DNA from: Eubacteriales bacterium
GTDB lineage: Bacteria > Bacillota > Clostridia > Oscillospirales > CAG-272
Length of the DNA: 64,000 bases
Assembly (NCBI GenBank): GCA_045120465.1
Contig: JBGVEW010000052.1
Coordinates: 22,635-86,634 of the forward strand
Reading direction: 5' to 3'
Shown here: positions 42,458-63,452 of the stretch, one piece after another
How the letters are laid out: every line of letters begins with the position of its first letter
How positions within the stretch are numbered: the stretch's first letter is position 1
Program-made: the position numbers and the translations under genes
Notes under the pieces: generated by a model
The model's input: the letters and a program-made list of their open reading frames with translations, nothing else
Told to the model about the DNA's origin: nothing
Databases searched by the model: none

Positions 42458-42528
42458 AAAGATGCAAGGCTACGTCTTGATTTATTTGTGAAAGTGTGTT
42501 ATAATACTCTCAAAGGGAGTGATTATAA

Positions 42529-43095: not shown

Positions 43096-43144
43096 CCTTT
43101 TGTTCGCTTTTACCTCGATTTTTGACCTTTTTATCAGTATTAGG

Positions 43145-43189: not shown

Positions 43190-43591
43190 GCGGAGAGAAC
43201 CAAACACGAACACTGCCTTGCAAAGCAAGGCTGGGGTTTGCATTCGCCGCCCGAAGGTCGGGGAGCTTGCTCAGCAGACGAAGGGTGAGCGATTCTTCAA
43301 ATCCGTTGGCGGATTTGAATACCCATCTCGCATCATTTTGCGAAAGCGATACAAATTGGTTGAAACATCTTGAATTTTCTATATAATCGTGATATAATAC
43401 GCATGATGAACAAAACTTAATAGCCTTGGCATTTTCGAGACAAGAGGGCACTATGCTTTTTCTTTGTATTCTATTCACCGTTAGAATTTGATACAAATAC
43501 GAATTATTATCGGATGAATTGTGGATATGTTTGGGTGTTATTAAGTTGCTGCAGAAACAATCGGGATTTGTATTTTTTGGAGGAAAGAACT

Positions 43592-45541
43592 ATGAAAAAA
43601 CTCGTAACATCATTTTTATCGGTATGCATGTTAGTTTTCCTTGTAACAATTCTTGCGGCTTGCAATGCGGGGAACGGTTCCACAACCGAGTTGACGGAAG
43701 GCTCAAAGAATCCCCCAACACAAGAGCCGCCAATAGAGGGGCTGAAACCCGGAGAGTTTGAATTTGAGTTGAATTCTGACGGTAACTCTTATACGATAAC
43801 AGATTTTGGAAAAACCAAGGGCGAAATCATCATCCCTGAGAAGCATCAAAACCTGCCCGTAACGGCGATTGGAAATAACGTTTTTTCGGGTAGCACCGCA
43901 ATCACAAAGATTGTAATTCCCGATAGCGTGAAAACAATCGGGCATAATGCTTTTAAAGATTGTACCGCTCTTTTGGAGATCATGCTTGGCGGCGGTGTCG
44001 AAAGCATTGGAGCAAGTGCTTTTGCAAACTGCTTTTCTCTTACGGAAATTACTTTGCCACAGGGTCTGACAAGTATTGGGGAGGGAGCTTTTGAAAATTG
44101 CTATTGTCTGATTCAAATCAAAAATCTCTCTTCTATCAAGCTGACTTGCGGTTACAATAATAACGGTCACGTTGCGTATTACGCGGAAAACATCTACACA
44201 AACGATATCGGTGAAAGCAAGCTCCAAAAAAGAGACAACTGTATTTTTTACGTTGACGAATCGACCGATACCTACTATTTGATCAAATACATTGGAAGCG
44301 AAACGAACGTTGTTACACCGGAGGGTGTGGAGAACAAGCCGTACACCGTTCGCAATTTTGCCTTTGCTGCTACAAAAGTGACGTCGGTTGAAATCGCCGG
44401 TGGTGCGACAAAAATTGACTCCAATGCTTTCGTCGGATGCTCACGGATGGAGAGTGTTCTGATCGGGGATAGCGTTACCCATCTTTCTAAAAACGCGTTT
44501 ACATCCTGCGGTAAGCTGAAAAACGTGACGATTGGCAAAAATGTCAGTGTGCTGGAGAGCCCGACGTTTTACGATTGCGATTCGATCGAAAACATTTACT
44601 TCCATGCAAAAAATGCAGTAAACACCTACGAGGTTGATGATGGAAATTACATTTTCTCCAATCCGCAGGGCTGTGACACCGTAATCAGCATCAAAATCGG
44701 TGCCGAGGTTATTCGTATTCCAGAAAATTGGTTTTTCGGTCATAACGTGGGCAGCATTCAATTCGACAGTCAAAGTGTTTGTGAGAGTATCGGCAACGGC
44801 GCATTCAGCAATCATAAAAAGATTACCACTCTTGAACTTCCCGATAGTGTGACGATGGTGGGTGACTTCGCATTTAACAATTGTGAAGGGCTTGTAAGCG
44901 TGAAAATGAACGGTGTTACCAGTATCCGTACCGGTGCATTCAGCAATTGCAAAGCTCTTAAAACGGTTTCGGCAAAAAATGCGGTTAGAATTAGTCGCTT
45001 GGGATTTTCAGGTTGCGGTTCCCTGACGGATATCGATTTGGGTAGTCAATTAACGGAAATAGGTGAGAGTGCGTTCCAAAATTGTGTGGCGTTGAAGCTT
45101 ACCTTGCCGGCTACCGTAACGAACATCGGCGGTAGCGCGTTTGAAAATTGTACGTCTCTTGCAAATTTAGTGTTCCCGGAGGGGCTCACTACCATTGGCG
45201 ACTATGCTTTTACAGGGTGTACTTCTATTACAAATGTTGAACTTCCCAATACGGTAACTTATTTGGGACAATCCGCTTTTGCAGGATGCACGTCGTTAAA
45301 ATCCGTGAGACTGGGGAACCAAGTTGCCGCGATCCATAGTAGGACATTTGCCAATTGTACCTCGCTTGAAAGCATCTACTTTGGAACAAGTGTAACTCGG
45401 ATTGGCAAAGATATATTCTACGGTTGCGACACATTAGATATTTATTATGATGGACTTTCCTCTCAATGGGGACAAATTGAGGGATTCAGAAGCGTATTCC
45501 ATAGAATTCACTGTGCGGATACGACCATCGACAGAAGTTAA
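43592..45541 (+). CDS. BspA-type leucine-rich-repeat surface lipoprotein
   Basis: Signal peptide with lipobox LAAC (MKKLVTSFLSVCMLVFLVTILAAC). Many ~23-aa LRR_5-type repeats (IPDSVKTIGHNAFKDCTALLEI, LPQGLTSIGEGAFENC...). GGAGGAAAG RBS before ATG 43592. Confidence 0.85.
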   Translation: MKKLVTSFLSVCMLVFLVTILAACNAGNGSTTELTEGSKNPPTQEPPIEGLKPGEFEFELNSDGNSYTITDFGKTKGEIIIPEKHQNLPVTAIGNNVFSGSTAITKIVIPDSVKTIGHNAFKDCTALLEIMLGGGVESIGASAFANCFSLTEITLPQGLTSIGEGAFENCYCLIQIKNLSSIKLTCGYNNNGHVAYYAENIYTNDIGESKLQKRDNCIFYVDESTDTYYLIKYIGSETNVVTPEGVENKPYTVRNFAFAATKVTSVEIAGGATKIDSNAFVGCSRMESVLIGDSVTHLSKNAFTSCGKLKNVTIGKNVSVLESPTFYDCDSIENIYFHAKNAVNTYEVDDGNYIFSNPQGCDTVISIKIGAEVIRIPENWFFGHNVGSIQFDSQSVCESIGNGAFSNHKKITTLELPDSVTMVGDFAFNNCEGLVSVKMNGVTSIRTGAFSNCKALKTVSAKNAVRISRLGFSGCGSLTDIDLGSQLTEIGESAFQNCVALKLTLPATVTNIGGSAFENCTSLANLVFPEGLTTIGDYAFTGCTSITNVELPNTVTYLGQSAFAGCTSLKSVRLGNQVAAIHSRTFANCTSLESIYFGTSVTRIGKDIFYGCDTLDIYYDGLSSQWGQIEGFRSVFHRIHCADTTIDRS

Positions 45542-45763
45542 ATTTTTGAATATTCACATGGATTTGACGAGCGTATTATCAAGGCACGGCTAAATTCAGA
45601 AAAGTATAACGGTTATTGCTCGTCGATGCGTTTGCGGTGTAATCTTTACGGTTCACCCTCGCCACCCAAAAGCGCCCCACCGCCACCGCGGTGGGGCGCT
45701 TGATTCCGTATTGACGAAAAATTGACTCATTATAGCAAAAAATTATCCTCTCTCTCCCATCTC

Positions 45764-45792
45764 TTGACCTTCTTTCAAAACTGTGCTACAAT
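45764..45792 (+). promoter_or_regulatory. Promoter for the beta-helix protein gene
   Basis: TTGACC (45764-45769), 17 nt spacer, TGc-TACAAT (45787-45792). Confidence 0.6.
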
Positions 45793-45827
45793 AAAACGAC
45801 TGAATTTTGACGGTGCGGAGGTGCGTT

Positions 45828-47330
45828 ATGCTTGCAACGGATGCGTTTTTGAAGCATTTGGACGAAATGAGCGAGGCTCGGAAGCGAGAAATTTTATCCG
45901 CCCCCGATGGTGTGGCGGTAACGGGAAATCGTTATTACGTTTCTGCCGACGGAAAGGATGAAAACGATGGAACGAGTCCTGCGCGCGCGTGGAAAAGCCT
46001 TGCGCGTGTGTCTGCGGCAGAGCTTGCGGAGGGGGATGCCGTGTATTTTCGTCGCGGCGACCTCTTTCGCGGCTCCTTAAAAACCTGCCCCGGGGTCACC
46101 TACGCGGCCTTTGGAACGGGCGAAAAGCCTCGTTTTTATTCTTGGAATTACGATCTTGCAAATCCCGATCTCTGGGAGTTGTTCGATGAGGCACATCACG
46201 TCTGGAAGCTGACCGAAAAGATCCTTGATTGCGGCACGCTGGTGTTTGACGGGGGAGCGGCGCACAGCCGCAAGCTGATCCCGTCCTATATCGGCGGTCG
46301 GTTCGTTTGCCGCGAGGATGAGAGCAGCCCCTTTGATATGTCGCGCGAGATGACGATGGATCTCGATCTGGTCTGCTTTTATGAGGAGCGAATGACCACG
46401 CGTCCCTCAAAAGGGGAGGACTTTCCAATTCCCGTGATTGATTCGGAGAGCTACGGCTCTTTGTATTTGCGGTGCGACAGAGGTAACCCCGGGGCGGTCT
46501 TTGGGAGCATTGAGGCACTTGCAAAGCGCAATATGATCTGCGTAGGCGGAAATGCAAACGTTCGAATCGATAACCTTTGCATCAAATACGTCGGCGCGCA
46601 CGCCATTGGTGCGGGGGGAGAGTGTGTGGTCGGTTTACACGTTACCAACTGTGAGATCGGTTGGATCGGTGGAACGATCCAGCATTATCTCGGTACCGAT
46701 CCCAACTATCCGGAGGGCGGACGCGGTACGGTAACGAGATACGGAAATGCAGTTGAGATCTACGGCGGGTGCAAGGACTACACGGTAGAAAATTGCTATA
46801 TCTATCAGGTTTATGATGCGGGGATTACCCATCAGGTCACCACGGGAGGCTCTTTCCGTGAAATGAGAGGAATCCGTTACCGAAACAACCTGATTGAGCG
46901 TTGCGTGTATTCCATTGAGTATTTTTTGGAAAAGACGATGGGAGATACCGAGAGCTATATTGCGGATTGTGAGATCTCGCACAACGTCCTGCGCTTTTCG
47001 GGGTACGGATGGGGACAACAGCGCCACAACACGCATACGCCCGCGCACATCAAGGGGTGGAGCTTTGAAAATACCGCAAGGGAGTTTTCCATCCACGATA
47101 ACGTATTTGATCGCGCCGCCTATCGGATGCTGCATCTGGTGGCACGCGAGGTGGAATCCTTGCCCGATATGTACAATAACCTCTACGTGCAGCAAAAGGG
47201 GTTGATGCTGGGACAATATGGTGCCAACCGTGAGGCAGAGCCGCCGATCCTTTCGTTTGACGAGCACACCGAGCAAACGGTGGAGACTGTTTTGGATGAC
47301 CAAAACGCCAAGATCTATATCATAGAATAA
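45828..47330 (+). CDS. Right-handed parallel beta-helix repeat protein (pectate-lyase-fold; glycan-active enzyme candidate), no signal peptide
   Basis: YYVSADGKDENDGTSPARAWKSL N-terminal signature and repeated beta-helix coils (NCEIGWIGG, GNAVEIYGGCKDYTVENCYIYQVYDAGITHQ). ATG 45828 has GGAGG 6 nt upstream. Confidence 0.7.
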   Translation: MLATDAFLKHLDEMSEARKREILSAPDGVAVTGNRYYVSADGKDENDGTSPARAWKSLARVSAAELAEGDAVYFRRGDLFRGSLKTCPGVTYAAFGTGEKPRFYSWNYDLANPDLWELFDEAHHVWKLTEKILDCGTLVFDGGAAHSRKLIPSYIGGRFVCREDESSPFDMSREMTMDLDLVCFYEERMTTRPSKGEDFPIPVIDSESYGSLYLRCDRGNPGAVFGSIEALAKRNMICVGGNANVRIDNLCIKYVGAHAIGAGGECVVGLHVTNCEIGWIGGTIQHYLGTDPNYPEGGRGTVTRYGNAVEIYGGCKDYTVENCYIYQVYDAGITHQVTTGGSFREMRGIRYRNNLIERCVYSIEYFLEKTMGDTESYIADCEISHNVLRFSGYGWGQQRHNTHTPAHIKGWSFENTAREFSIHDNVFDRAAYRMLHLVAREVESLPDMYNNLYVQQKGLMLGQYGANREAEPPILSFDEHTEQTVETVLDDQNAKIYIIE

Positions 47331-47424: not shown

Positions 47425-49668
47425 TTAGGGTTCATAGGATTCGAGACGGCGGATGTAGGCTTCCTGCTGGGGTGCGGGGACGTTGTTCCAAAGAGCGTTC
47501 CATCCGCAAATACGTACCTGTAGATTTCGATATTGATCGGGATTTTTTTGCGCGTCGCGCAAGGTCTTCGTTTGAAAGACGTTGAATTGGATCGACATTC
47601 CGCCGCCCTCCATATACGCCATCACCAAAGCGCGCATGGCGGCAAGTCCGCCCTCACCGCTGACGGCAGAGGGATGGAGCATGACGTCCGTGCAGAAGGA
47701 TTCCAACCACAGATAGGGGGAGAGCGCAAGGGAGGAGCGCAACAGTGCCGTGACCCCGCCGCGATCCATTCCGGGGGTGGGAGAGGCGTTTTTGGAGTAT
47801 TCCTCGCCCGCCATACGTCCGTCGGGGGTGGCACCCGTTTGTTCGCCCTGCCATACGAATTGCATGGCGGTGTGAATACAGGATTTATAAATGCCGCCGC
47901 GCGCGTTGGGGCGGTAATTGATCTTTCCACTCAGCCAGTGCGAGAGTGCCTGCGCATAGCGGTCGGTCTCCTCGTCGCCGTTTCCGTACTTGTGAGGAGA
48001 ATTTTTGATGCGCTTTTGCAGGAGCTCGTAGCCCTGCCAGTTGCGCTCCAAGGCAAGGGCAAGCTCCTCAAGGCTCAGGGTGTGCGTGTCGTAAACGAAT
48101 TCCTTGACCGCCATCAAGCTGTCAACAAAGCTTCCAAAACCGCAACAAAGAATGGCGGTGTTGTTGTATTTGACTCCGCCCGCATAGCCGTCGCGCGCAT
48201 TTTTCAAGCTGTGCTCTACCGTTGCGGAGTAGAGCGAGGACGGGTTGACCTCTTCAAGATGCGCTTCGATGCGATTGATCGATGCGATTACGCGCTCGAT
48301 AAAGGAGCTCAACTGCTTTTGTACGGCGGAATAGAAATCTTCAAAGGTTGCAAAATCGGAGAGCTTGCCTGTGTGGATGCCCACCTGTTCTCCGGTTTTT
48401 GCGTCGTAACCGTCGCTCAGGACGTAGAGAACGGATTTGAGCAGATTGATATAGGCATCCGCGGTGGAAATCTCGTTGGCGCGCACGCCCGTTTCGTAGC
48501 AACCGCGAAAATCCATATCCAAGGCTTCTTCAAAGCTGGCACCGTAGCTCATAACGGCACGCATATGCCCGGGCTCACAACAAAAGACGAGGGCTCCTTC
48601 ACCCGATCGCGCGATATCCAGCGTGAGATTCCAAAATTCGATGGGGGTGTTGGTATTGACCTTGATTTGGATTTTGGGATTGTAGATGTGAAGCGCGCGG
48701 TAGGTGTTGAGAATATCGTAGGAAAGATGGTTGACACGGGTCGAGCCGTCGGGGAACGTTCCGCCTAGATAAAACGGCTGTCCCCAGTAGTTTCCAATGG
48801 CGGAAAACTGCATAAAGAAGTAGCCAAGTAGCTCGCAAAGCTCCTCGCGTGCAACCCCGTTTTGCAGATCCTTTTCCCAAAAGGGGAGCAGGGTGTGGTC
48901 AAGTCCGTTTCCAAGCGAGCGCACCTGAAAGAAATCGACCGATTCGCTCACCATAAAATAGAGGTACATCAATTGCAACGCGTCATAGGTATTTTGCGGT
49001 GCACCGTCGCGCAAATGTGCAAGGGAGGTGGCAATGGCGGGGGCTTTGGCGTGTGTCTGCTTCAACGCGTATGCGTGCAAGCGATCCAAAAAGCGGATGG
49101 TTGCGGAATATTCGATCTCAATTCCGTCAAAATACGCCTTTTGCTCGTCTGTCAAAGCACCTTTTGTCTCATGATGCCGTCTCCAAGTACGAGCACGCTC
49201 CAAAATCCCCGGAAAGCCGAGGTTCATCAAAGCCTCCCAGTCGGGAACGATATGATCGTAATCCACCCACATATTTACCGCACCCGAGCGGTTGAAGAGC
49301 GCCATCTGTGCGCCGTCCTCGGGGAGCGTTTTTTCAAACAGCTCGCGGTCCCATTTGCGAACGGTCACGTCCCCAATGGCGCGGTTCCACGTATAGACCC
49401 CAACAAACCAGTCGTGCTCGTTGACGTCGATCCGTGTGTGATCCAGCACGTACTCTACTGCCATCGCCTTAAAAACGGGGCGTGGGAGATGACCGTGCGT
49501 GGCTTCCAAACGGCGCAAGCCTTCCTTGATCTCCTCGTCCGTGTCTCCCGTTGAGGGATCGTACTCGTATCCGTGGTACGCCATACGCACGTAAGGGTCA
49601 AAGGGTTGGTCCTGGCGGTGGTATTTGTTTTCCAGATAATCGCGGTCTGATTGCAGATTTTCAAACAT
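47425..49668 (-). CDS. Glycyl radical enzyme, PFL2/dehydratase-like family, substrate unknown (GRE-1)
   Basis: C-terminal glycyl motif QVRICGWNA (Gly codon 47503-47505). Cys loop DFRGCYETG (Cys codon 48499-48501). PFL2-like N-terminus. ATG 49668 has GGAGG 8 nt upstream. Confidence 0.85.
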   Translation of the reverse strand: MFENLQSDRDYLENKYHRQDQPFDPYVRMAYHGYEYDPSTGDTDEEIKEGLRRLEATHGHLPRPVFKAMAVEYVLDHTRIDVNEHDWFVGVYTWNRAIGDVTVRKWDRELFEKTLPEDGAQMALFNRSGAVNMWVDYDHIVPDWEALMNLGFPGILERARTWRRHHETKGALTDEQKAYFDGIEIEYSATIRFLDRLHAYALKQTHAKAPAIATSLAHLRDGAPQNTYDALQLMYLYFMVSESVDFFQVRSLGNGLDHTLLPFWEKDLQNGVAREELCELLGYFFMQFSAIGNYWGQPFYLGGTFPDGSTRVNHLSYDILNTYRALHIYNPKIQIKVNTNTPIEFWNLTLDIARSGEGALVFCCEPGHMRAVMSYGASFEEALDMDFRGCYETGVRANEISTADAYINLLKSVLYVLSDGYDAKTGEQVGIHTGKLSDFATFEDFYSAVQKQLSSFIERVIASINRIEAHLEEVNPSSLYSATVEHSLKNARDGYAGGVKYNNTAILCCGFGSFVDSLMAVKEFVYDTHTLSLEELALALERNWQGYELLQKRIKNSPHKYGNGDEETDRYAQALSHWLSGKINYRPNARGGIYKSCIHTAMQFVWQGEQTGATPDGRMAGEEYSKNASPTPGMDRGGVTALLRSSLALSPYLWLESFCTDVMLHPSAVSGEGGLAAMRALVMAYMEGGGMSIQFNVFQTKTLRDAQKNPDQYRNLQVRICGWNALWNNVPAPQQEAYIRRLESYEP

Positions 49669-49714
49669 TCGAGCGACCTCCAAATTGATGAATATACTTT
49701 CATTATATGTTTTT

Positions 49715-49776
49715 TTTCGAAAAAGTCAATGAAGATTTTGATCATACTTGACTTTTTCGAAACAAAAAGCTATAAT
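49715..49776. promoter_or_regulatory. Divergent promoter pair built on a perfect 15-bp inverted repeat
   Basis: TTTCGAAAAAGTCAA (49715-49729) and TTGACTTTTTCGAAA (49748-49762). Each arm supplies a TTGACT -35 element, spaced 17 nt from TATAAT (49771-49776) on the plus strand and 16 nt from TATAAT on the minus strand. Confidence 0.7.
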
Positions 49777-49800
49777 ATAGGCAGAAACGGAGGAATGGGA

Positions 49801-50562
49801 ATGGATTTTTTGTCATTTTCGGAGATCACTGTTACCAAAATTGTTTTGGCGATCTGTGTGGAAAAGGGGACTCCTTATCACCGCAATCGTCCGTCTCACG
49901 GTTTGGCTTTGCAGCTTGGCGGAAGGCGCGAATACCTTTTTGAGGACGGGACACGCTTTACGGTTGAAAAAAGCGGATTGCTCTATCTTCCCAAGGGATC
50001 AAGCTACAGCGTTCGCACGCAGGAGGCGGGAAAAACCTATGCCATCAATTTTGACGTGGATAGCGACGCGTCTTTTTCACCGTTTTCCATGAGGATCAAG
50101 GAGCCGTTTGCGTTGACCGAGGCGTTTGCCGCGGCGGAACGAGCGTGGATGGGATCTCGTGGGGGACGAGATGCGGAAATCCGTGCGCGTTTGTACGATA
50201 TTTTGGCATATTTGCAGCGGGAGCGCGAAGCGGGGATTCAAAGAGACGCGCGCAGAGGTTTGTTGCAAAAGGCGGAGCGTTATATCGATGAGCATTTCAG
50301 CAATCCCGAATTGCGAGTGAGGGAGATTGCCGCGGTATGCGGGATGAGCGAGGTCTATTTGCGAAAGCTTTTTCATGAGGAGCTGGGGATGACTCCCATT
50401 GCAAGAATCCGCGCGCACCGAATCGAGTACGCCAAGGGGCTGATCGCGTCCGGCTTTTACAGCATGAAAGAGGCGGCAACGCTTGCGGGATATGCGGATT
50501 ATTCCTACTTTTGCCGTGAATTTAAAAAAGAGACGGGCTGCGCACCGTCGGGGTATCGGTAG
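49801..50562 (+). CDS. AraC family transcriptional regulator
   Basis: Cupin-like N-domain and a C-terminal AraC HTH pair (EVYLRKLFHEELGMTPIARIRAHRIEYAKGLI...FCREFKKETGCAPSGYR). ATG 49801 lies 8 nt after GGAGG. Confidence 0.85.
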   Translation: MDFLSFSEITVTKIVLAICVEKGTPYHRNRPSHGLALQLGGRREYLFEDGTRFTVEKSGLLYLPKGSSYSVRTQEAGKTYAINFDVDSDASFSPFSMRIKEPFALTEAFAAAERAWMGSRGGRDAEIRARLYDILAYLQREREAGIQRDARRGLLQKAERYIDEHFSNPELRVREIAAVCGMSEVYLRKLFHEELGMTPIARIRAHRIEYAKGLIASGFYSMKEAATLAGYADYSYFCREFKKETGCAPSGYR

Positions 50563-54550: not shown

Positions 54551-54593
54551 ACCGAGTAACCGCTCATCATCGAATATTGATCCAATCGAAAAA

Positions 54594-54631
54594 GGGTGGT
54601 GTCAAATGCAATTTCGCATTTGACGCCACCC
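54594..54631. terminator. Bidirectional terminator hairpin, GTCAAATGC family
   Basis: GGGTGGTGTCAAATGCaatttCGCATTTGACGCCACCC, flanked by AAAAA on one side and TCTTTCG on the other. Confidence 0.75.
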
Positions 54632-54639
54632 TCTTTCGA

Positions 54640-55416
54640 TTATAATTGGATATGCCTTTCCGCCATCAGTGCCGCCTGCTTGCTCTCCCCCAATGCGTGA
54701 TAGGGGAGAAACGCTACGGAAAGATTGCGATCCTGACAGAATTGGCGGATTTTGTCACATTCCGCTCCTTCGTTAAAGTCGGGGATCACGGGCGTGCGGA
54801 TCAAGATCTGCGTTCCCGTTTTTCGAAGCTTTTCGAGATTGGAGAGAATGAGCGTGTTGTCTGCCCCCGTTCCGCGTCGATGCAGATCGGGGTCAAGACA
54901 TTTGATATCGTAAAGAAAAAGATCAACGAAGGGGAGCACGGCTTCAAAATGGCGGTAGGGAACCTGTCCCGAGGTGTCGATCGCAACGTGGATGCCGTTT
55001 TCGCGGCAATCCTTGGCAAGAGAAGCTACCTCTTGCGGGTAGAGCATACATTCACCGCCCGAAAAGGTCACGCCGCCACCCGTGGCATCAAAGTAGGGCT
55101 TGTCTGCCATGATCAGCTCGAACAATTCTTCCTTTGCGAAAGGGGTTCCGTAAAGCCGTTTCGCACCCGTTGGGCAAACGGCGGCACACGCGCCGCAGGC
55201 TGTGCAAGCGTTCTTGTGCGTGCAATTGTTTTGACAGGCATGACAGCCGACGCATTGCTCCTTAAACCAAGCAAGCTCAGGTTGGGGGGATTTTCCCTCG
55301 GGATTGTGGCACCAATAGCAGTTCAAGGGACATCCCTTCAAAAAGAGCACCGTGCGCAAGCCCGGACCGTCCGAGGTGGAGGAGCGGTGAACGTCAAAAA
55401 CCAAAGGGGTGCTCAT
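54640..55416 (-). CDS. Glycyl-radical enzyme activating protein (radical SAM, with ferredoxin-like auxiliary cluster region)
   Basis: DGPGLRTVLFLKGCPLNCYWCHNPE (CxxxCxxC) plus CVGCHACQNNC...CTACGACAAVCP. ATGA overlap with the upstream reductase stop. Confidence 0.9.
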   Translation of the reverse strand: MSTPLVFDVHRSSTSDGPGLRTVLFLKGCPLNCYWCHNPEGKSPQPELAWFKEQCVGCHACQNNCTHKNACTACGACAAVCPTGAKRLYGTPFAKEELFELIMADKPYFDATGGGVTFSGGECMLYPQEVASLAKDCRENGIHVAIDTSGQVPYRHFEAVLPFVDLFLYDIKCLDPDLHRRGTGADNTLILSNLEKLRKTGTQILIRTPVIPDFNEGAECDKIRQFCQDRNLSVAFLPYHALGESKQAALMAERHIQL

Positions 55417-56354
55417 GTCAATCCAACTCGATTCATCATTTCAAGCTCCTTATCGGTGAGGGGGAGCTCCAATCCGCGTGCGTTTTGCAAAAGCTGCTCG
55501 GGGGTTGCGGAGAAGAGCGGGATCACGCGCGGGAAGCCGTTGCAACGGTGGAGATTGGTCAGCCAAGCGATAACGAGCGCGCTGGGGTTGACTCCCTTTT
55601 CTGCCGCCATACTGCGGATGAACTCCAGGCGTTCACCGCCCTCGTACTCTGCGGGGAGCAGATCGGGATTCTCGTAAGCACCCTTGCACAGACAGGCGTA
55701 GGAAACGAGAGGCATATTCTTGTCGCAGAGGAAGCGCAAACGCTCGCGGTTGACCACCTCGTTAAAGGCGTATTTGGGAGCGGCGGAGAATTTGGGGTTG
55801 AGATAGCTCAAACGCTGTTGCATTACGGTGTAGGGCGTTTGTCCGCGGGCGGCGGCAATTTGATTTGCCTCTGCCAATCTCCAAGTGTCAAAGTTGCTCG
55901 ATCCCAGCGTGCGCACTTTGCCTTTTTTGACCAAACGGTCAAAGGCTTCCATGGTTTCTTCAATAGGGGTGTTCGTGTCATCGGTGTGCGCGTAATAAAG
56001 GTCGATGTAGTCGGTGCCGAGTTTGCGAAGGCTTTCCTCTACCCAGTATTCGATCTGCTCCTTTTTCAGTCCCGCGCCCTTTCCGTGGCGGTCAAAGCCT
56101 ACCTTGGTGGCAAGAACCACGCGGTCGCGGCAGCCTCGGTCTCGGAGCCATTCGCCAAGCAGGGTCTCGCTTTCGTCACCTGTGCCCGCCCAGTGCGCGT
56201 AGTTATTGGAGGTATCGATAAAGTTCCCGCCAAGATCCATATAGGTATCAAGGACGCGGTAGGACTCCTCTTTAGAGGTGGTGGAACCGAACATCATTGC
56301 TCCAAGAGCGATTTCGGAAACCTCAAGCCGGTTGGGAAGAAGTATTTTTTTCAT
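55413..56354 (-). CDS. Aldo/keto reductase
   Basis: LGAMMFGS...VLDTYMDLGGNFIDTSNNY, LYYAHTDD and RTLGSSNF AKR signatures; 313 aa. Confidence 0.88.
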   Translation of the reverse strand: MKKILLPNRLEVSEIALGAMMFGSTTSKEESYRVLDTYMDLGGNFIDTSNNYAHWAGTGDESETLLGEWLRDRGCRDRVVLATKVGFDRHGKGAGLKKEQIEYWVEESLRKLGTDYIDLYYAHTDDTNTPIEETMEAFDRLVKKGKVRTLGSSNFDTWRLAEANQIAAARGQTPYTVMQQRLSYLNPKFSAAPKYAFNEVVNRERLRFLCDKNMPLVSYACLCKGAYENPDLLPAEYEGGERLEFIRSMAAEKGVNPSALVIAWLTNLHRCNGFPRVIPLFSATPEQLLQNARGLELPLTDKELEMMNRVGLT

Positions 56355-56384
56355 GATCGTATTCCTTTCTGTGTGTTGATCGAA

Positions 56385-58604
56385 TTATTGAAAGCGTTCG
56401 ATAATGTCATCCTGCAAGCGATCGCAGATATCCACGAAAACACCGCTGTAGCCCGTGACACGAACACGGATGTCTCGGTGAAGCGAGGGATTTTTGCGTG
56501 CGTCGAGCAGATCTTCGAGCGTGGTGCAGGAAACCTGCGCGTGGAGACCGCCTCGGTTGAAATAGGTGGCAAGGAGAGAGGCAAAAATCGCGTGCCCGCT
56601 CTCTCCCACAAACTGCTTTGCATCCACGTCCAGATTCAAAGCTCCCGACACCAAGCCGTCTTTGGGAAGGTGAAGCATGGAGTTGAACATTGCGGTCAAT
56701 CCGTTTTTGCACGCCCCGTTAGAGGGGCGCGTGTTTTGTGAAAAAGGGGTGTGCGCGCGTCTGCCGTCCGGGGTCGCGCCAAAGTCCTCCCCCATTTTGA
56801 GGTGCCACGTGTCGCTTTGGAAGCAGGGCACGAGGAAGAGGCGTTCTTTTTCAAAATACGGATGGCATTTTTGAATCACCGTATCCGTAATCGCCTTGGA
56901 AAGCCTTGCAACGTGTGCGTTGGAAAAGGGGGTATCCATGCCGTATTTATCGGCATTGCGGCAGAGCGCGAGGAGTTCGGGAAATCCTTCAAAATCCGCA
57001 TCGACCGCGCGCAGAAGCTCGGAGAGTGTCAAACGCTTTTCACGAATGACTAATTTGTCGATTGCGATGATGGAATCCACCACTGTGCCAAACATCTGAA
57101 AGGGCTGAAGCTCAAAATGATAGGTTGCGCATACGGAGTGCGTTTGACCGCTTTCCATCACATCCGTGAGGAAGCAATCGCCAAAGGTCAAAGCCGCCCA
57201 CGGGTTTCGCTTGCGGACCGAAAGCTCGCGGGAGAGGATCGACAGCTTTCGGTCGATAAATTCCGACAGCCGTTTGAGTAATCCATCGTAAACATCGTCG
57301 ATCGTAAGGGAGTCGGGAGCTTTCTTTGCCAGCTCACGCAAAACGAGCATCAGGTCCTCGGGATAGGCGTGCGGTGTGTTGGTGCGCATAAAGGGAATGT
57401 TGAGCGCGTGCGTCTCCTCGTCGGTTTGATAGACCTTCATATGGACGCTCTTGGGAGGAGCTTGCATCCAAACGCCTCTCTCGCCGGGGGAGCACCAGTT
57501 GCATCCAAAGTGCGCGTACTGACGTGCGTCCGCTTTGGGAAGACCGAGACGCTCAAACGCGGAAATGACGTTTCCGTCGTTATAGAACATGAGAGAGGAA
57601 GCGGCAAGAGCGCGGTCGCACAGCGTGCGCCACAGGTGCGGTGCGGTTTGATCCATGCCCGTTACGTAACGAACGACCACAACGGGATTTTTGAAGGCGG
57701 GGACGATACACTCTGCCATCAATTCGGTCAACTCGTTTACTGCGAGATCACCGTTTTCGTCCGTGCCCCCAAGCAAGAGGTATTGCGGTGCGTCAAAATT
57801 GGGAATGCGGGCAAACGTAGTGCTGTTGGTTTCATCTCCCACTTGATGCTCACCGCGCCCCATAATGAGATTGTGCTTGCAATAGTAATCCGTGATATCC
57901 TTCGCAACGTCCTCTCGGGTCGTCCTTCCGCTTTTGAGGTCGGCTTGGTAATAAGGATAGAGGAGTTGGTCGAGCCGTCCCACCGTCAAGGTAGGATTTT
58001 CCGAAACGTAGGCACAGTTGATCAGCGTGACCATCCAGAGCAATTGCAATGCGGAAGAAAAGCTGTCGGGGGGAGCGGTTGCAACGCGGCGCAGATTGCA
58101 TGCGACATCGTCTTTTCCCATGCTTTGCGCTACGTCGGCGTAGCGGAGTGCAAAAGAAATGATGGCATCGTAAATTTCAACCATCGCTTCCGCAAATGCC
58201 GACTCTCTGTCGTCGGTGGCACGGTTCCGTCTTGCGAGCACCTGCGCACGGAGCCCGGAAAGCCCTCGCTCCAAAAGAGTTCCCCAAGAGTAGGTGCAAT
58301 GTCCGGATGAGAGAAATAGATTATGGGCGGGGTAGTCGGGATGCTTGAGATACGCTTGAAAGCGTGCTTCCTCCTCCTCGCAAAGTTCGCGGTCCACGAC
58401 TCTTCCGGCAATCCGATCATACGGCTCTATTGGGAGAGAGACGCGCGAGAGAAGGATCGATAGCGCACGAGAAAAACGCTTGGGTTGAACGAGCTCGGGA
58501 CAATCGGATTTGATTTCATCGAGGATCAAAAAGCGTTCTGCGGAGGTGGCGCGTATTGGTTTTTCGGTCAAAGCGAGCGTGGCTTCCCTGATATTTCGTT
58601 CCAT
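56385..58604 (-). CDS. Glycyl radical enzyme, PFL2-like family, substrate unknown (GRE-2)
   Basis: C-terminal RVRVTGYSGVF (Gly codon 56451-56453). Unusual Cys loop HFGCNWCSPGE (Cys codons 57501-57503 and 57492-57494). AAAGGAGG RBS, 13 nt after the transporter stop. Confidence 0.85.
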   Translation of the reverse strand: MERNIREATLALTEKPIRATSAERFLILDEIKSDCPELVQPKRFSRALSILLSRVSLPIEPYDRIAGRVVDRELCEEEEARFQAYLKHPDYPAHNLFLSSGHCTYSWGTLLERGLSGLRAQVLARRNRATDDRESAFAEAMVEIYDAIISFALRYADVAQSMGKDDVACNLRRVATAPPDSFSSALQLLWMVTLINCAYVSENPTLTVGRLDQLLYPYYQADLKSGRTTREDVAKDITDYYCKHNLIMGRGEHQVGDETNSTTFARIPNFDAPQYLLLGGTDENGDLAVNELTELMAECIVPAFKNPVVVVRYVTGMDQTAPHLWRTLCDRALAASSLMFYNDGNVISAFERLGLPKADARQYAHFGCNWCSPGERGVWMQAPPKSVHMKVYQTDEETHALNIPFMRTNTPHAYPEDLMLVLRELAKKAPDSLTIDDVYDGLLKRLSEFIDRKLSILSRELSVRKRNPWAALTFGDCFLTDVMESGQTHSVCATYHFELQPFQMFGTVVDSIIAIDKLVIREKRLTLSELLRAVDADFEGFPELLALCRNADKYGMDTPFSNAHVARLSKAITDTVIQKCHPYFEKERLFLVPCFQSDTWHLKMGEDFGATPDGRRAHTPFSQNTRPSNGACKNGLTAMFNSMLHLPKDGLVSGALNLDVDAKQFVGESGHAIFASLLATYFNRGGLHAQVSCTTLEDLLDARKNPSLHRDIRVRVTGYSGVFVDICDRLQDDIIERFQ

Positions 58605-58617
58605 GCGGTTCCTCCTT

Positions 58618-59562
58618 TTATAAGAGACTCATGCTGACGATTCCCAGCATGGCAACGGCAGAGCCAAGGAGACTGCGCCGTGTGATTCGCTCTCCAAAGA
58701 AGAGCATTGCGGTAAAGGTGACGGTGATCAGGCAACCGCCCTTGATGATCGGGTACAACACCTGAGAGGGCATACCAAGGTCTGCGGTTGCAACGGTTTG
58801 CAGGTAGTTTGCGGCAAAGAGACAGATTGCCATGGTGAGGATATGGAGCACGATGCCGATCGAAAGGTGCGCTTTTGTGGCGCGCGTTCCTTTTTCGTTC
58901 GTTTTGCGGTTACGGATCAACGTCCCCGCCCAAAAGAGGAGGAGAGCTACCGCCGCAAAGAAAAAGGTATAAACGTGAAAGACCGATTTGGGGTAGAATA
59001 CGTTGTGCGTCAGCGCTCCTGCCTCGGTGTAAAACTGCTTGTAGAGTTGTTGCGCAAAGCCGGACACTCCGTCGCCGATGGCGGCAAAAATCAGCAGGAT
59101 CAACCCCGAAGCACTGCTTTGGGAGGCGGCCTTAGGTTTTCCGCCCGCGAGGATGACCGTTGCCCCGAGGATCATGGCAAAGCCGAGCATTTTGGGAACG
59201 GAGATCGCTTCGCCAAAAAAACAAGCGCACAAAACGGCAGGGAGGAGAGAGCCCATTGTAAGCCCTACGTCTACGAGCACCATGGAGTTTTTTTGTATCG
59301 CCAACAGCCAGCCAACCAAAAACGCCGCATTGGCAAGTCCCGAAAGGGCGCAGATCAAAAGCATTTGCCATTCGGGAAGGAGGGAACCTTGCGCTCCTTC
59401 AAAAAAGACGAACAGCACACCGATTGCGATGCAGAATACCATTCTTAATAAATTGAAGAGAAGTGCGTCTGCCGTAGAGGAGGCGTAACAGCTGATTCTT
59501 TTGCCGCAATAGCCCTTTACCGAAAGGGCAAGCAGGGCAAGTGCAATGATTCCGTAAACCAA
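58618..59562 (-). CDS. DMT-superfamily (EamA-like) transporter, 10 TM
   Basis: Two EamA-like halves, ending FGERITRRSLLGSAVAMLGIV. Start set to TTG 59562 (GGGGGA 7 nt upstream). The track's 59808 start would cover the divergent promoter and the araC start. Confidence 0.75.
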   Translation of the reverse strand: MVYGIIALALLALSVKGYCGKRISCYASSTADALLFNLLRMVFCIAIGVLFVFFEGAQGSLLPEWQMLLICALSGLANAAFLVGWLLAIQKNSMVLVDVGLTMGSLLPAVLCACFFGEAISVPKMLGFAMILGATVILAGGKPKAASQSSASGLILLIFAAIGDGVSGFAQQLYKQFYTEAGALTHNVFYPKSVFHVYTFFFAAVALLLFWAGTLIRNRKTNEKGTRATKAHLSIGIVLHILTMAICLFAANYLQTVATADLGMPSQVLYPIIKGGCLITVTFTAMLFFGERITRRSLLGSAVAMLGIVSMSLL

Positions 59563-59641
59563 ATTCGTTTCCCCCGTTTGTTTTGGTGATTCTATTATAA
59601 CAGAAAGGAAAAGGCTTGGGAATGTATTATTGTGATAAACC

Positions 59642-59670
59642 TTGACTTTTCTGCACAAAGATGATACAAT
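59642..59670 (+). promoter_or_regulatory. Promoter for the third araC gene
   Basis: TTGACT (59642-59647), 17 nt spacer, TACAAT (59665-59670). Confidence 0.6.
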
Positions 59671-59697
59671 AAAGCAGAGAAAGAGAGGGGGATTGAC

Positions 59698-60540
59698 GTG
59701 AGAGTTATAACTCCGTGGGCACTTTGCCGACAAAATGCGGACCTGGAGATTCTTGCTGTTTTGCGAGAGCATTGGACACCCAAAAAGGAATTTTCGCTCC
59801 ACAAGCACAAGGAACGCCCAACGTCTGCGCTGTTTTTCGTGTGTTCAAAGGTCGAAGTGGCGTTTGAAACACCAAGCGGCGAGCGGATGATCACAGCGCA
59901 GGAGGGGGATGCGGTCTTTATTCCCAAGGGGAGCCTTTACGAGGCACGCGTGGTGTCAAATTCCCCCGATCCGATCGATACCTATACCGTAAACCTGCAC
60001 ATTTATGGCGAGGGAAGGGAAGAATTGCTCTTGTCGGAGGGGATTTCGCTCTTGTCTCATGACGCCTCAGGAGTGTACGCAACGCATCTCAAAGCCTTGT
60101 CGGATGCCTTTTACGGTGTCACGGGAGGAGGGGGCTCCAACATGGTGCGAAGCAAGGGAGAGCTCTTCTTGCTGCTGGATCGCATCGGGAATGCGGCGTC
60201 CCCAAAGGAAGAATTTTACTATCCGATCCGTCGAGGTGCCGACGCGATGCGTGAGGAGTGGTGGCTCAATGAAAAAATAGAAAAATATGCACAGATGAGC
60301 GGTGTCAGCGTCACCTATTTTTACCGATGCTTCCGTAACTGGTCGGGCAAAAGCCCCGTTGAGTACCGTACGGCGCTTCGCCTTTCTCATGCGGAGGGAC
60401 TTTTGCGCGGAACCGATATCGGGATCCGCGAGATCTCCCAATCGGTGGGCTTTGAGGATCCGTTCTATTTTTGCCGCGTGTTCGAAAAGGCATACGGAAC
60501 GTCGCCCCGCCGTTACCGCACACAATGCCGCAACGGTTGA
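59698..60540 (+). CDS. AraC family transcriptional regulator
   Basis: Cupin-like N-domain (AQEGDAVFIPKGSLYEARV) and AraC HTH pair (VTYFYRCFRNWSGKSPVEYRTALRLSHAEGLL...FCRVFEKAYGTSPRRYR). GTG start has GAGGGGG upstream. Confidence 0.85.
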   Translation: MRVITPWALCRQNADLEILAVLREHWTPKKEFSLHKHKERPTSALFFVCSKVEVAFETPSGERMITAQEGDAVFIPKGSLYEARVVSNSPDPIDTYTVNLHIYGEGREELLLSEGISLLSHDASGVYATHLKALSDAFYGVTGGGGSNMVRSKGELFLLLDRIGNAASPKEEFYYPIRRGADAMREEWWLNEKIEKYAQMSGVSVTYFYRCFRNWSGKSPVEYRTALRLSHAEGLLRGTDIGIREISQSVGFEDPFYFCRVFEKAYGTSPRRYRTQCRNG

Positions 60541-60698
60541 CACGGTTTTGTTTTTGCTTGCGCAAGATTGATTTTTTAGAGAAAAGCGTTTGGAATCGAG
60601 CTTTTTTTCTTGACTTTCCAAAACGTTTATGTTATACTGAAAATGGATAATTATAGAGACGAAAACGTAAATTCGTACAAAAGAGAGGAACGCAACGC

Positions 60699-63452
60699 AT
60701 GAAAAAGAATTTGAGAAGCATGATTGAGATTCTGCCGCAGGATACGCCGCAGTGTCTGGTGGATATGAATCAATACGACCTGATCGAGAGCACGGGAATG
60801 CTCCCGAATCTGGCACATAAAAAGAGTGCGCATATGACGGCGGCGTGGAATCCCGCAAAACTTTCTCGCACGGTCATTCCCATGGGCGGATCGGATCTGT
60901 CCGGATACCGTTACCTCACCTTTTCGGTGTTTGGATCGGGATGTACGGGGCTTTCCTTCCGCTTGATGTTTGATAACAGTCTCGACGGTGACGGCAAAAA
61001 CGGATATGCCGTACAGTTGTTTGTTACCAAGGACGGCTGGAACGATTATCGCATCGAGTTGCCCTTTATGCATAGCGTAAGAGAAGCGGAGGGCTGGGAT
61101 CATATCGGCAGCATTACGCTCGAATACCTCACGGGGCTTGACGGCACGCGCGCGGGGACTCTGTACCTCGACAGCTTCTTCATTTATGCGGATTACGTCG
61201 CACCCCTTTACACAAAAATGCCGGAGCTCAAGGGGGCTGCACTCTTTTCCAAAACGGGGAACTTCAGCATCATCGACCGCAAGCGGATCCCCAATTCGCT
61301 CGACGGTGCGGATGCCAAGCCCTTTGAGGAGGACGGTGTGCTTTGGCTTCCCATGGCACCCGTTGCGGCGGGAATCGCGTTTTCCGCGGTTGCCGATAAC
61401 CGCGCTTTGACCTTGAACTTTACCTATCGTCGCAAAAAATACGCTTTTTCTGCGGAATCCGATCAAATGACGGTGGACGGTGAGCCTGTTTCTCTCGGCT
61501 TCTATCCCAAAACGCGCGGAGGTATGCTCTTTTTCCCCGCAGACTTCGTGCGCGAGTTCTTCCGCTGGAGACAGATCTTTACCGATCCGATGGGGCTTGT
61601 CGTGCTTTCCAACCGCCGCGGCATTTTCCAGAGTGTACGTGACGAGGGCGTGATCTGGCAGTTGATCGCAGATATGACCTTCCTGCGCCCCACGGGTGAG
61701 CGGATTTTGGCAGATCTGCACCGCCGCTTCCCGAATCCCACGCGCGGCAGACTCCTTCTTAGCCATGACGAGCTGATGCAGCTTCGCCGCAACGTCAAGG
61801 AGGACGCAAATCTCAAGGAATACGTAACCGCTCTCAAATCCCGCTACGGGGTTGGCAGTGCAGCGTTTGCGGCTTCCGAGATCCCCGCGCTCCTTCCCAG
61901 AACCGCGCAGGAATTGGCGGAGGAATTGCTCGATTCCGCGGATAAGATCCTCGCGTTTTCCACCCTTTACCGCGTGACGGGGGATAAGAAATACTGCGAA
62001 CGTGCCGCGCGCGAATGTGAGGCGTTGGCGGAATTTAAGGATTGGAGCTCACAGACCATGTCGGTCACGGGTACGGTCTCTCTCTCGGTCGCACTCTGCT
62101 ACGATTGGTGCCACCATACGTGGAGCGAGGGCAGAAAGGCGATCGTTGAGCGCGCGCTCCTTCGCAACGGTATGCGCGTAGGTCTTGAATGTTACGACGG
62201 TAAGAGAAGAATGTGGATCACCGGCGGTACTGCGGCGGCGGTCGTCAATGCGGGTATGCTTGCCATGGCGTTGGCTCTTGCCGATATCTATCCCGAAACC
62301 GCGCATAAGCTTCTTGACCGTATTTTGCGCAACGTGGAGCCTTGCTTTGCCTCCTACGCTCCCGACGGTGGCTACTGTGAAGGAATTGCCGCGTGGGAAA
62401 AGAGCTTCCGTTCGCTTTCTTTGATCATCGCAATGCTCGAAAAGGCTTGCGGAGAGGACTACGGACTCCTGTCCGCTCCCGGCTTTGCCGCAACCGCTTA
62501 TTTCCCGATCTGTACCGAGACCGCAAACGGTGCTTGGAACTATCATAACACCGAGCAAGCTCCCATCGATACTTCCATGATGTTCTGGCTCTCTTCCAAA
62601 ATCAACAATCCCACGCCCGCTTGGATGCGCCGTCAGCAGCTTCTCTCGGGACAAAAACAGGTACATCCCTTCGATATCGTATTCTATACTCCGGTTGACG
62701 ACGGACTTTCTCAACGGCTTCCCACCGATGCCGTTTACCGCAAGGCGGGGCTTGCAATCATGCGTTCGGGATGGGGACGCGAGGATATTTTCGTTGGTCT
62801 CCACGGTGGAAACAACGCGGAGGTCAACGGTGACCTTGACGCGGGCAGCATCGTTTTGGATGCGGGAGGCGTTCGCTTCTTTGCGGAAACCGGCGGAATC
62901 GCAGGGCTTCCCATTATGCTTCGCCGTCGTGCCGCAGGGCAGAACACGATCGTGGTCAATCCCACCGAGGAGCCGGCTCCCGACCAAAACCCCTTGGCAC
63001 TTGCAAAGCTGACTGAAATGAAGGGAAGCCCCGAGCATATTTACGCGGTCGTGGATATGGCATCCACCAATGACGCGATCTTGCGCGGTAAGCGTGGCGT
63101 AATGCTGACCGATAACCGTTCTACCGTTGTGATTCAGGATGAATTGGTGCTCTCCGAGCCATCCGTTGTGGTTTGGACGGTATATACCCCTGCATCTGTT
63201 ACGCTTCTCTCGGGTGGAAAAAGCGCAAGATTGGATAAGGACGGCAAGACCCTCCTTTGTAAGATCGGTGGCTTTGGACAAGCAAGATTTGAGTGCGAAG
63301 CGGTGGAAGGGTGCGAGTTGACCCGTCTCTTCATTCGCATGGAGGTCAAGCAACGCTTGCGCCTCTCGGTTGCCTCGACGTTGGTAAGCGAGGACGAGAT
63401 CGCAACCAAAAAACTGTACGAAACCGCGCCCATTAGCACGTGGGGCGAATAA
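60699..63452 (+). CDS. Large heparinase II/III-like protein (917 aa) with extra N-terminal beta-rich domains, no signal peptide
   Basis: Central alpha-toroid region (YRVTGDKKYCERAARECEAL...ALCYDWCHHTW) and a C-terminal heparinase II/III-type beta-sandwich (GLHGGNNAEVNGDLDAGSIVLDAGGVRFFAETGG). The first ~330 aa hold a CBM-like segment and a copper-amine-oxidase-N-like segment. Confidence 0.75.
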   Translation: MKKNLRSMIEILPQDTPQCLVDMNQYDLIESTGMLPNLAHKKSAHMTAAWNPAKLSRTVIPMGGSDLSGYRYLTFSVFGSGCTGLSFRLMFDNSLDGDGKNGYAVQLFVTKDGWNDYRIELPFMHSVREAEGWDHIGSITLEYLTGLDGTRAGTLYLDSFFIYADYVAPLYTKMPELKGAALFSKTGNFSIIDRKRIPNSLDGADAKPFEEDGVLWLPMAPVAAGIAFSAVADNRALTLNFTYRRKKYAFSAESDQMTVDGEPVSLGFYPKTRGGMLFFPADFVREFFRWRQIFTDPMGLVVLSNRRGIFQSVRDEGVIWQLIADMTFLRPTGERILADLHRRFPNPTRGRLLLSHDELMQLRRNVKEDANLKEYVTALKSRYGVGSAAFAASEIPALLPRTAQELAEELLDSADKILAFSTLYRVTGDKKYCERAARECEALAEFKDWSSQTMSVTGTVSLSVALCYDWCHHTWSEGRKAIVERALLRNGMRVGLECYDGKRRMWITGGTAAAVVNAGMLAMALALADIYPETAHKLLDRILRNVEPCFASYAPDGGYCEGIAAWEKSFRSLSLIIAMLEKACGEDYGLLSAPGFAATAYFPICTETANGAWNYHNTEQAPIDTSMMFWLSSKINNPTPAWMRRQQLLSGQKQVHPFDIVFYTPVDDGLSQRLPTDAVYRKAGLAIMRSGWGREDIFVGLHGGNNAEVNGDLDAGSIVLDAGGVRFFAETGGIAGLPIMLRRRAAGQNTIVVNPTEEPAPDQNPLALAKLTEMKGSPEHIYAVVDMASTNDAILRGKRGVMLTDNRSTVVIQDELVLSEPSVVVWTVYTPASVTLLSGGKSARLDKDGKTLLCKIGGFGQARFECEAVEGCELTRLFIRMEVKQRLRLSVASTLVSEDEIATKKLYETAPISTWGE

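Follow-up and report, generated by a model that had tools for sequence, protein, structure and literature searches.

A predicted glycyl radical enzyme subfamily with a C-N-W cysteine loop and a conserved aldo/keto reductase partner in gut bacteria

Glycyl radical enzymes (GREs) drive gut reactions that are relevant to the host, among them the formation of trimethylamine, p-cresol, skatole and H2S and the use of hydroxyproline; to our knowledge, every newly characterised GRE clade has revealed a new pathway. Here we describe GRE-2, a GRE encoded in a 64,000-nucleotide stretch of DNA (the window; contig JBGVEW010000052.1, positions 22,635 to 86,634, of assembly GCA_045120465.1) from a Eubacteriales bacterium. 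Judged from its sequence and a structural model, GRE-2 is a genuine GRE, predicted to be activatable, that belongs to no characterised class, and alignments place it in a clade that has so far gone uncharacterised and whose Cys loop invariably reads C-N-W, with a Trp in place of the general-base Glu. GRE-2 and an aldo/keto reductase (AKR) encoded next to it are the true conserved unit of a small genetic module. The loss of the catalytic Glu of the studied relatives and the constant pairing with a carbonyl reductase suggest that GRE-2 probably performs an undescribed anaerobic reaction, a surprise tempered by the fact that uncharacterised GRE clades are already known in general.

GRE-2 and the C-N-W clade

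The following features of GRE-2 and its partner carry the argument (GD, glycerol dehydratase):

56385..58604, minus strand: GRE-2, glycyl radical enzyme of the C-N-W clade, 739 aa (PF02901 and PF01228)
58299..58304, minus strand: G101-H102, putative equivalent of GD His164 (profile alignment, high posterior probability; invariant)
57843..57860, minus strand: GRGEHQ (residues 249-254), clade-specific and invariant; the only low-confidence loop of the model
57792..57794, minus strand: D271, clade-specific acid, 19/19 in C-N-W sequences and absent in C-x-E sequences
57495..57503, minus strand: Cys loop C368-N369-W370 within HFGCNWCSPGE (365-375), from alignment to solved GREs; conserved in 81/81 sequences, at a hairpin tip in the model
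56802..56819, minus strand: QSDTWH (596-601); Q596 and D598 align with GD Tyr640 and Ser642 on an active-site strand, D598 invariant
56442..56462, minus strand: glycyl radical loop RVTGYSG (715-721; G718 at 56451-56453), hairpin 713-716/719-722 in the model; invariant
55413..56354, minus strand: AKR, 313 aa (PF00248, 193 bits)

GRE-2 carries the PFL-like (PF02901) and Gly_radical (PF01228, 59 bits) Pfam domains. Its C-terminus follows the fingerprint reported for GREs, RVxG[FWY]x6-8[FL]x4Qx2[IV]x2R (PMC13450708), reading R715-V-T-G718-Y...I726...Q731..I734..R737, with an Ile for [FL] as the sole deviation. In an AlphaFold2 model built with 77 homologues (pLDDT 92.8, pTM 0.93), C368, located between strands 364-366 and 370-372, and G718 occupy the tips of two beta-hairpins, corresponding to the canonical Cys and Gly finger loops. 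When the model was compared with solved structures using Foldseek, the eliminase and isomerase GREs were all nearly equidistant from GRE-2 (TM 0.75-0.80, 18-23% identity), and pyruvate formate-lyase (PFL) was not among the top 50 structural matches.

A preliminary description of this DNA, made from the letters alone, had regarded GRE-2 as an orphan, and this view was borne out. GRE-2 scored far under all the NCBIfam equivalog cut-offs (45 bits against 994 for TIGR01255, the PFL equivalog) and under that of the subfamily model TIGR01774 (PFL2/3, the glycerol dehydratase family; 229.7 bits against 678.2), and its identity to any solved GRE is at most about 25%. The RVTGYSG and HFGCNWCSPGE loops that had been read in the protein are present, and the family assignments of the module hold. 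As GRE-2 lacks both the C-x-E motif and the adjacent CC pair and falls below the curated cut-offs of all named families, it is placed in no characterised class. The literature that we searched, covering GRE/AKR pairing, sugar and polyol GREs and recent GRE papers, yielded no publication on the C-N-W clade or on the GRE-AKR pairing.

Alignments to solved GREs, carried out with single sequences and with profiles and in agreement with the residue numbers of PMC13450708, match C368 with the catalytic Cys of HpzG (Cys435), HplG (Cys427), PflD (Cys431) and GD (Cys433). The preliminary description had asked which Cys of the loop sits at the thiyl position; alignment and model both identify C368 as the thiyl Cys. 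Two other residues to which it had drawn attention, the second Cys (C371) and the acid at position 375, are not features of the family, whose hallmark is C-N-W: in 81 distinct sequences C-N-W is 100% conserved, Cys stands at position 371 in 40% and Pro in 48%, and about half of them have an acid, Asp or Glu, at position 375. C371 and E375 were rejected as catalytic features because of this limited conservation.

In the alignments, W370 falls on the C-x-E glutamate (C433/V434/E435 in GD). According to a June 2026 review, which lists no exception, C-x-E on the Cys loop is kept by all characterised GRE eliminases and isomerases; its Glu is hydrogen-bonded to the substrate, acts as the general base and is catalytically essential where tested, and two loop cysteines are found in PFL and TdcE only (PMC13450708). 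The Cys loop of GRE-2 is, as had been noticed from the sequence, neither CC nor C-x-E, and the C-N-W clade breaks the rule that unites all the characterised eliminase and isomerase GREs.

In GD, His164 protonates the leaving hydroxyl (PMC13450708). By sequence, the His general acid expected for an oxygen leaving group is present in GRE-2, since H102 aligns with GD His164 and with the Gly-His motif of propanediol dehydratase (PD) and PflD, and is invariant. From the GD active-site set (Cys433, Glu435, His164, His281, Ser282 and Asp447), GRE-2 keeps just the Cys and His164; in the profile alignment His281/Ser282 are replaced by N203/T205 and Asp447 by Q381. GRE-2 also has features of its own: GRGEH (249-253) is a five-residue insertion missing from every solved GRE, and D271 falls, in an approximate alignment, on GD Tyr339 of the active-site wall. 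In the C-N-W class the Gly-His motif and D271 were each present in 19 of 19 sequences and GRGEHQ in 18. The mapped positions of the predicted active site are polar or aromatic, and none of them is an Arg.

The clade is large. A large protein database contains more than 120 protein clusters with 60-75% identity to GRE-2, all of 734-747 aa; those with a name are annotated as 'hypothetical protein' (NCBI) or 'formate C-acetyltransferase' (JGI) and stem from uncultured Clostridia. Among 50%-identity representatives, the GCNW Cys loop and an R[IV]TGYS Gly loop are common to the full-length relatives down to about 31% identity. The median length of the C-N-W proteins is 736 aa, against 788 aa for the C-x-E enzymes. 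C-N-W pairs all score at least 285 bits and pairs of a C-N-W with a C-x-E protein at most 275 bits; a single-linkage network (250-400 bits) did not split the two groups, which are bridged by C-N-x and C-C-x intermediates in a sample biased towards relatives of GRE-2.

A scan of species-representative genomes detected relatives in 231 genomes, from which 80 loci were fetched; these, together with ten loci from exact-protein look-ups, make up the partly redundant set of 90 loci used below. The 80 fetched loci all come from gut, rumen or faecal metagenome-assembled genomes, several of them from human samples, and belong mostly to Oscillospiraceae, Clostridia and Eubacteriales, with some Christensenella, Lentisphaerae/Victivallales and Verrucomicrobia.

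The reductase partner and the variable neighbourhood

The protein encoded downstream of GRE-2 is a member of the AKR superfamily, as indicated by its PF00248 score and by the tetrad D47/Y52/K84/H123, which is invariant in 82 distinct orthologues. Of 87 assessable loci, 86 have an AKR gene downstream of the GRE gene and on its strand, in 83 of them at a distance of 85 nt or less. Compared within each locus, the AKR is consistently better conserved than its GRE (86% vs 65% in one case). A search from the AKR side, aimed at distant contexts, listed 120 top homologue clusters that were all at least 80% identical, vs 60-75% for the GRE at equal rank. A small substrate or an interface between proteins might explain this slow evolution. 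The invariant residues of the AKR are concentrated in 17-207, and the C-terminal third is variable. The nearest solved AKRs, the tylosin-aldehyde reductase AKR12D and the 3-keto-DON reductase DepB, are too generic to name a substrate.

The pairing has a boundary within the clade. A metagenome scan seeded with a distant C-N-W subclade (31-40% identity to GRE-2; GCNWPDIP and RITGYSA loops), which returned mostly environmental contigs, revealed an AKR in 0 of 43 distant-subclade loci with at least 1.2 kb of downstream sequence. The same scan included seven members at or above 45% identity (RVTGYSG loop) whose downstream sequence was long enough, and all seven have the AKR. The absence of the AKR from the distant subclade implies that the pairing defines the GRE-2 subfamily (at least 45% identity) and not the whole clade; this subfamily is the first type of GRE for which a highly conserved AKR has been seen as an obligate partner. 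The distant subclade (L091-L157) has no strongly conserved partner of its own, and its minor neighbours comprise URO-D-like proteins, activases, small CBM4_9 and ConA-lectin-like proteins, DUF6785/6784 membrane proteins, and DegT and class-III aminotransferases. Two or three paralogous GRE copies occur on three of its contigs (L116, L120 and L121).

The neighbourhood for which the preliminary description had suggested a test of conservation, with a transporter, an AraC regulator and an activase around the GRE-AKR pair, is conserved, though only the pair is constant and the three additional genes are each found in about 30-40% of loci. Clustering of the neighbours in the 90 loci gave 37 with an activase, 35 with a divergent AraC gene and 28 with an EamA gene upstream of the GRE, and no other family exceeded 7; activase, EamA permease and AraC regulator are therefore optional components of the module. 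In many loci the pair lies among housekeeping genes (ATP synthase, threonyl-tRNA synthetase, Tex). AraC regulators with a PocR domain and a Pyr_redox_2/DUF1667/DAO+BFD trio adjoin the module in about 7 loci from a few related lineages, this trio being typical of clostridial glycerol-3-phosphate (G3P) dehydrogenases. A PTS_EIIC_2 permease directly after the AKR is a minor recurrent context, and GH2, GH42 and GH32 genes are neighbours in a few genomes.

Beside the pair, the 90 loci have no other conserved enzyme: kinase, phosphotransferase system (PTS), aldolase, uronate-pathway, small Fe-S subunit and CoA-handling genes are all not conserved. Neither microcompartment shell proteins nor a CoA-acylating aldehyde dehydrogenase, whose absence had been remarked on earlier, were found among the called genes within 10 kb or among the recurrent neighbours of the 90 loci, and the locus does not qualify as one for a GRE-associated microcompartment. 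A PL35-like lyase gene, which in the window lies beyond the AraC gene, is adjacent in just two of the 90 loci (L007 and L008), both of them 99% identical to the window and, by this identity, from the same or a near-identical organism. The lyase was rejected as a part of the system for this reason.

Candidate reactions

By analogy, the GRE-2 module would work most like the DhaB1/DhaB2/DhaT system of Clostridium butyricum (PDB 1R8W) and the PflD/YbiW systems. As in the former, a GRE, an activase and a carbonyl-reducing enzyme are encoded together, and GRE-2 resembles GD (DhaB1) in its fold (TM about 0.79), in the correspondence of H102 with His164 and in the universal GR.D, ATPDGR and RV.G motifs. 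GRE-2 differs from GD in the replacements of Glu435 (Trp370), His281/Ser282 (Asn203/Thr205) and Asp447 (Gln381), in the GRGEH insertion and in being about 50 aa shorter, and the identity between them is 19%. The partner of GRE-2 is an AKR, whereas DhaT is an iron-dependent alcohol dehydrogenase.

PflD and YbiW (PDB 8ID0 and 8ID7) share the Gly-His motif with GRE-2 and are among its best sequence and structure matches. They open the rings of 1,5-anhydromannitol-6-phosphate and 1,5-anhydroglucitol-6-phosphate, keep the C-x-E motif (Glu433, Glu443) and yield a product that is cleaved by downstream aldolases (PMC13450708). Their substrates are phosphorylated, whereas the GRE-2 module has an obligate AKR, and neither a PTS nor a kinase or an aldolase is conserved in it. 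HpzG, the best single-sequence PDB match of GRE-2 (186 bits), has its Cys435 at the position of C368, but it carries C-x-E (Glu437), acts on an amino acid, has no AKR partner and is only about 20-25% identical. PFL and TdcE belong to the same superfamily, and GRE-2 itself has a second loop Cys; however, Cys418 and Cys419 of PFL are adjacent, while the second Cys of GRE-2 stands at +3 and is 40% conserved.

We tentatively favour, at somewhat less than an even chance, a radical reaction that breaks a C-O bond in a small neutral polyol or sugar derivative and gives a carbonyl compound that is then reduced by the AKR. A small, probably neutral, hydroxylated compound would be imported, through the permease where one exists, and the thiyl radical of C368 would abstract a hydrogen atom from it. 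The C-O bond beta to the radical would then break, with H102 protonating the leaving oxygen, in a dehydration or in the opening of an ether or ring, and the base role of the lost Glu could be taken by a clade-specific acid (D271, D598 or E252). With NAD(P)H, the AKR would immediately reduce the resulting aldehyde or ketone. Overall, an oxygen function would be removed reductively, which would serve as an electron sink and dispose of a reactive carbonyl, with a logic like that of DhaB1/DhaB2/DhaT, in which glycerol is converted to 3-hydroxypropanal and this to 1,3-propanediol.

Radical C-O cleavage appears most likely because the His for the leaving group is retained and the closest relatives are enzymes that cleave C-O bonds, and an aldehyde or ketone product because no enzyme other than a carbonyl reductase is invariably linked. 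A substrate that is neutral and resembles a polyol or sugar fits the absence of Arg at the mapped positions and the non-PTS transporter where one is present; further hints come from the PocR regulators and the G3P-dehydrogenase-like trio in about 7 loci and from the GH2, GH42 and GH32 genes in others. The preliminary description had put forward new radical chemistry; as the His general acid is kept, however, the chemistry may be a variant of elimination or ring opening and not a wholly different one.

Several points weigh against this reductive C-O cleavage. The Glu to Trp swap means that the chemistry may be no elimination at all. D271, D598 and E252 are placed near C368 by alignment to GD alone, and for D271 this alignment lies beside indels. 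The order of the GRE and AKR reactions is not fixed by genomics. The hints to the substrate taken from the neighbourhoods are heterogeneous, and many loci have neither transporter nor regulator. In addition, the distant C-N-W subclade has no AKR, which implies that the product of the GRE need not always require reduction.

The first of these points leads to an alternative that we consider unlikely but worth keeping in mind, namely a non-eliminase radical chemistry that needs no base on the Cys loop (C-C cleavage or formation, decarboxylation, epimerisation or isomerisation), with the AKR handling a carbonyl substrate or product. It would account for the loss of a Glu that every characterised eliminase and isomerase has (PMC13450708), the Trp could offer a hydrophobic or stacking surface, and an insertion and invariant acids are unique to the clade. 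Nevertheless, in sequence and fold GRE-2 is nearer to the eliminases and isomerases than to the decarboxylases or X-succinate synthases, with PFL far away, the leaving-group His is invariant, and small Fe-S subunits and CoA-handling genes are not conserved in the 90 loci.

As the gene order GRE-AKR does not set the reaction order, the AKR might act first, reducing an imported keto or aldehyde compound (e.g. a keto-sugar) to an alcohol that GRE-2 would then isomerise or cleave. This would parallel the reduction of 1,5-anhydrofructose to 1,5-anhydroglucitol by some AKRs (PMC12441222) and the action of GRE isomerases on phosphorylated anhydro-alditols (PMC13450708), and GRE-2 has the Gly-His motif in common with PflD and YbiW. 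We regard it as improbable, since kinase, PTS and aldolase are not conserved with the module and C-x-E is absent; moreover, a GRE product entering central metabolism would predict more conserved pathway genes, of which none was seen in the 90 loci.

It is also rather improbable, and a little more so, that GRE-2 is a divergent B12-independent glycerol or 1,2-diol dehydratase in which the AKR replaces the iron-dependent alcohol dehydrogenase. GD and PD belong to the best matches by profile and by structure, H102 corresponds to GD His164, the operon logic is that of dhaB1-dhaB2-dhaT, and the PocR regulators (7 loci) and the Pyr_redox_2/DUF1667/DAO+BFD trio adjoin the module in some genomes. This last context is, however, confined to a few related lineages, and the dehydratase assignment is at odds with the replacement of the GD residues Glu435 (Trp), His281/Ser282 (Asn/Thr) and Asp447 (Gln), with an identity of just 19-22%, with a score under the TIGR01774 cut-off and with the lack of microcompartment genes.

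A substrate derived from a glycan, as the preliminary description had proposed, such as an unsaturated uronate or some other glycosaminoglycan product freed by the PL35-like lyase next to the module, found no conserved support and is very doubtful: although the lyase gene lies directly beyond the AraC gene, GH2, GH42 and GH32 genes occur near the module in a few genomes, CBM4_9 and lectin-like neighbours in the distant subclade, and the residues predicted for the active site are a Trp and otherwise polar ones, the lyase gene has its own promoter-like site and is adjacent only in the two near-identical loci, many other loci lie among housekeeping genes or, in some cases, beside PocR and the G3P-dehydrogenase-like trio, uronate-pathway genes are not conserved in the 90 loci, and the predicted active-site positions have no Arg for binding a carboxylate or sulfate.

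A bolder proposal, possible but on the doubtful side, is that the C-N-W GREs with their obligate AKR constitute a new functional class, in which either a bond is cleaved without the loop Glu by means of clade-specific Asp and His residues and a Trp platform, the carbonyl being passed to a physically associated reductase, or a chemistry unseen in GREs takes place; the substrate would be a common gut metabolite for which no anaerobic route is known. The lost catalytic Glu, the obligate and exceptionally conserved AKR and the spread over many gut taxa make GRE-2 a well-defined target for discovery, and the AKR supplies an NAD(P)H-coupled read-out that makes its function directly testable. Once defined, this function would give the GRE superfamily a further reaction class or a new solution to catalysis, and the GRE-AKR pair could account for an electron sink of fermentation in uncultured Oscillospiraceae and Christensenellales.

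Operon layout and other features of the window

The remaining features of the locus are:

54593..54632, no strand assigned: terminator-like hairpin, perfect 17-bp stem (17 pairs, 9 GC) with a loop of 6
54640..55416, minus strand: GRE activase, radical-SAM, 258 aa (TIGR02494; Pfam Radical_SAM/Fer4_12)
58618..59562, minus strand: EamA/DMT-type permease, 314 aa, TTG start, first gene of the operon (PF00892)
59563..59697, no strand assigned: divergent control region with two back-to-back promoter-like sites
59698..60540, plus strand: AraC-family regulator, 280 aa, GTG start after GAGGGGG (PF12833/PF00165)
60699..63452, plus strand: PL35-like polysaccharide lyase, 917 aa (8khv, 172 bits; 9o3q, PL35 chondroitinase)

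The EamA permease, GRE-2, the AKR and the activase form a single minus-strand operon (54593-59697), with the AraC gene divergent to it and encoding its likely regulator, as concluded from the 13- and 30-nt gaps with ribosome-binding sites, the ATGA overlap, the divergent promoter pair and the terminal hairpin. The four-gene unit, the AraC gene and the 917-aa gene had all been recognised in the preliminary description, and their open reading frames, the two gaps and the overlap were confirmed. As read from the sequence, the 13-nt gap between the EamA and GRE-2 genes carries AAGGAGG, the 30-nt gap between the GRE-2 and AKR genes carries GAAAGGAA, and ATGA joins the AKR stop with the activase start. 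The hairpin, located between the activase stop and a convergent galT gene, is likely a bidirectional terminator that ends the operon.

For the EamA gene, the TTG at 59562 (314 aa) is favoured over the start of the 396-aa open reading frame and is the most likely start, given the sequence and the gene call in the 99%-identical metagenomic locus L007. In the 135-bp region between the EamA and AraC genes, the promoter-like sites each match 10 of 12 positions; the one on the minus strand (59622-59594) has a TG-TATAAT element, and the one on the plus strand spans 59642-59670. The PL35-like gene has a separate promoter-like site (60610-60638). The base composition of the operon is not distinct from that of its flanks. 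A riboswitch upstream of the module, sought as a clue to the ligand, was detected neither in the window nor in 9 related loci.

The activase scored 275.6 bits with TIGR02494, above its cut-off of 174.35, and reached no equivalog cut-off. It contains a CX3CX2C motif (C29/C33/C36) and 8 further Cys (55-81) for two auxiliary clusters. The 917-aa protein, which had been described as heparinase II/III-like, is better described as PL35-like from its match to 8KHV; its N-terminus is extended by about 350 aa, in which there is a weak match of the Cu_amine_oxidN1 type, and a signal peptide was not obvious by eye.

The window encodes a second orphan GRE, GRE-1 (752 aa, 47425-49683, minus strand), with a divergent AraC gene (49651-50562, plus strand). 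GRE-1 is only 23% identical to GRE-2; its Cys loop is of the C-x-E type (GCYET), and its Gly loop (RICGWNALW) is unusual. It scored under all the NCBIfam cut-offs (319 against 678 for TIGR01774), and its best PDB match is HypD (249 bits). No activase gene adjoins it, and it may share the GRE-2 activase, 7 kb away. A functional link between GRE-1 and GRE-2 was rejected, since their co-location is not recurrent. The GRE-1 orthologue of L007 (19083-21326) was called as two genes, one encoding a PFL-like protein of 623 aa and the other a Gly_radical protein of 114 aa, which points to a frameshift or an assembly error. In a locus of Christensenella sp. UBA1259 (L036, about 1750-11900) there are three tandem GRE-activase units, of which the middle one has a GRE-1-like enzyme (GCYE, RLCGWN) and the last is a GRE-AKR-activase unit of the GRE-2 type.

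Elsewhere in the window, two open reading frames, at 38672-40906 (minus strand, 744 aa) and 45807-47330 (plus strand, 507 aa), gave no significant Pfam or NCBIfam match. A tetrahydrofolate (THF) riboswitch (31009-31134, plus strand, 68.6 bits) lies upstream of the open reading frame 31064-31792. Finally, a possible acquired island is the region 42000-46000, which has a low GC content (0.41-0.45, against about 0.52) and contains a tRNA (42156-42244) and a gene for a BspA-type protein with leucine-rich repeats (43514-45541, 675 aa).

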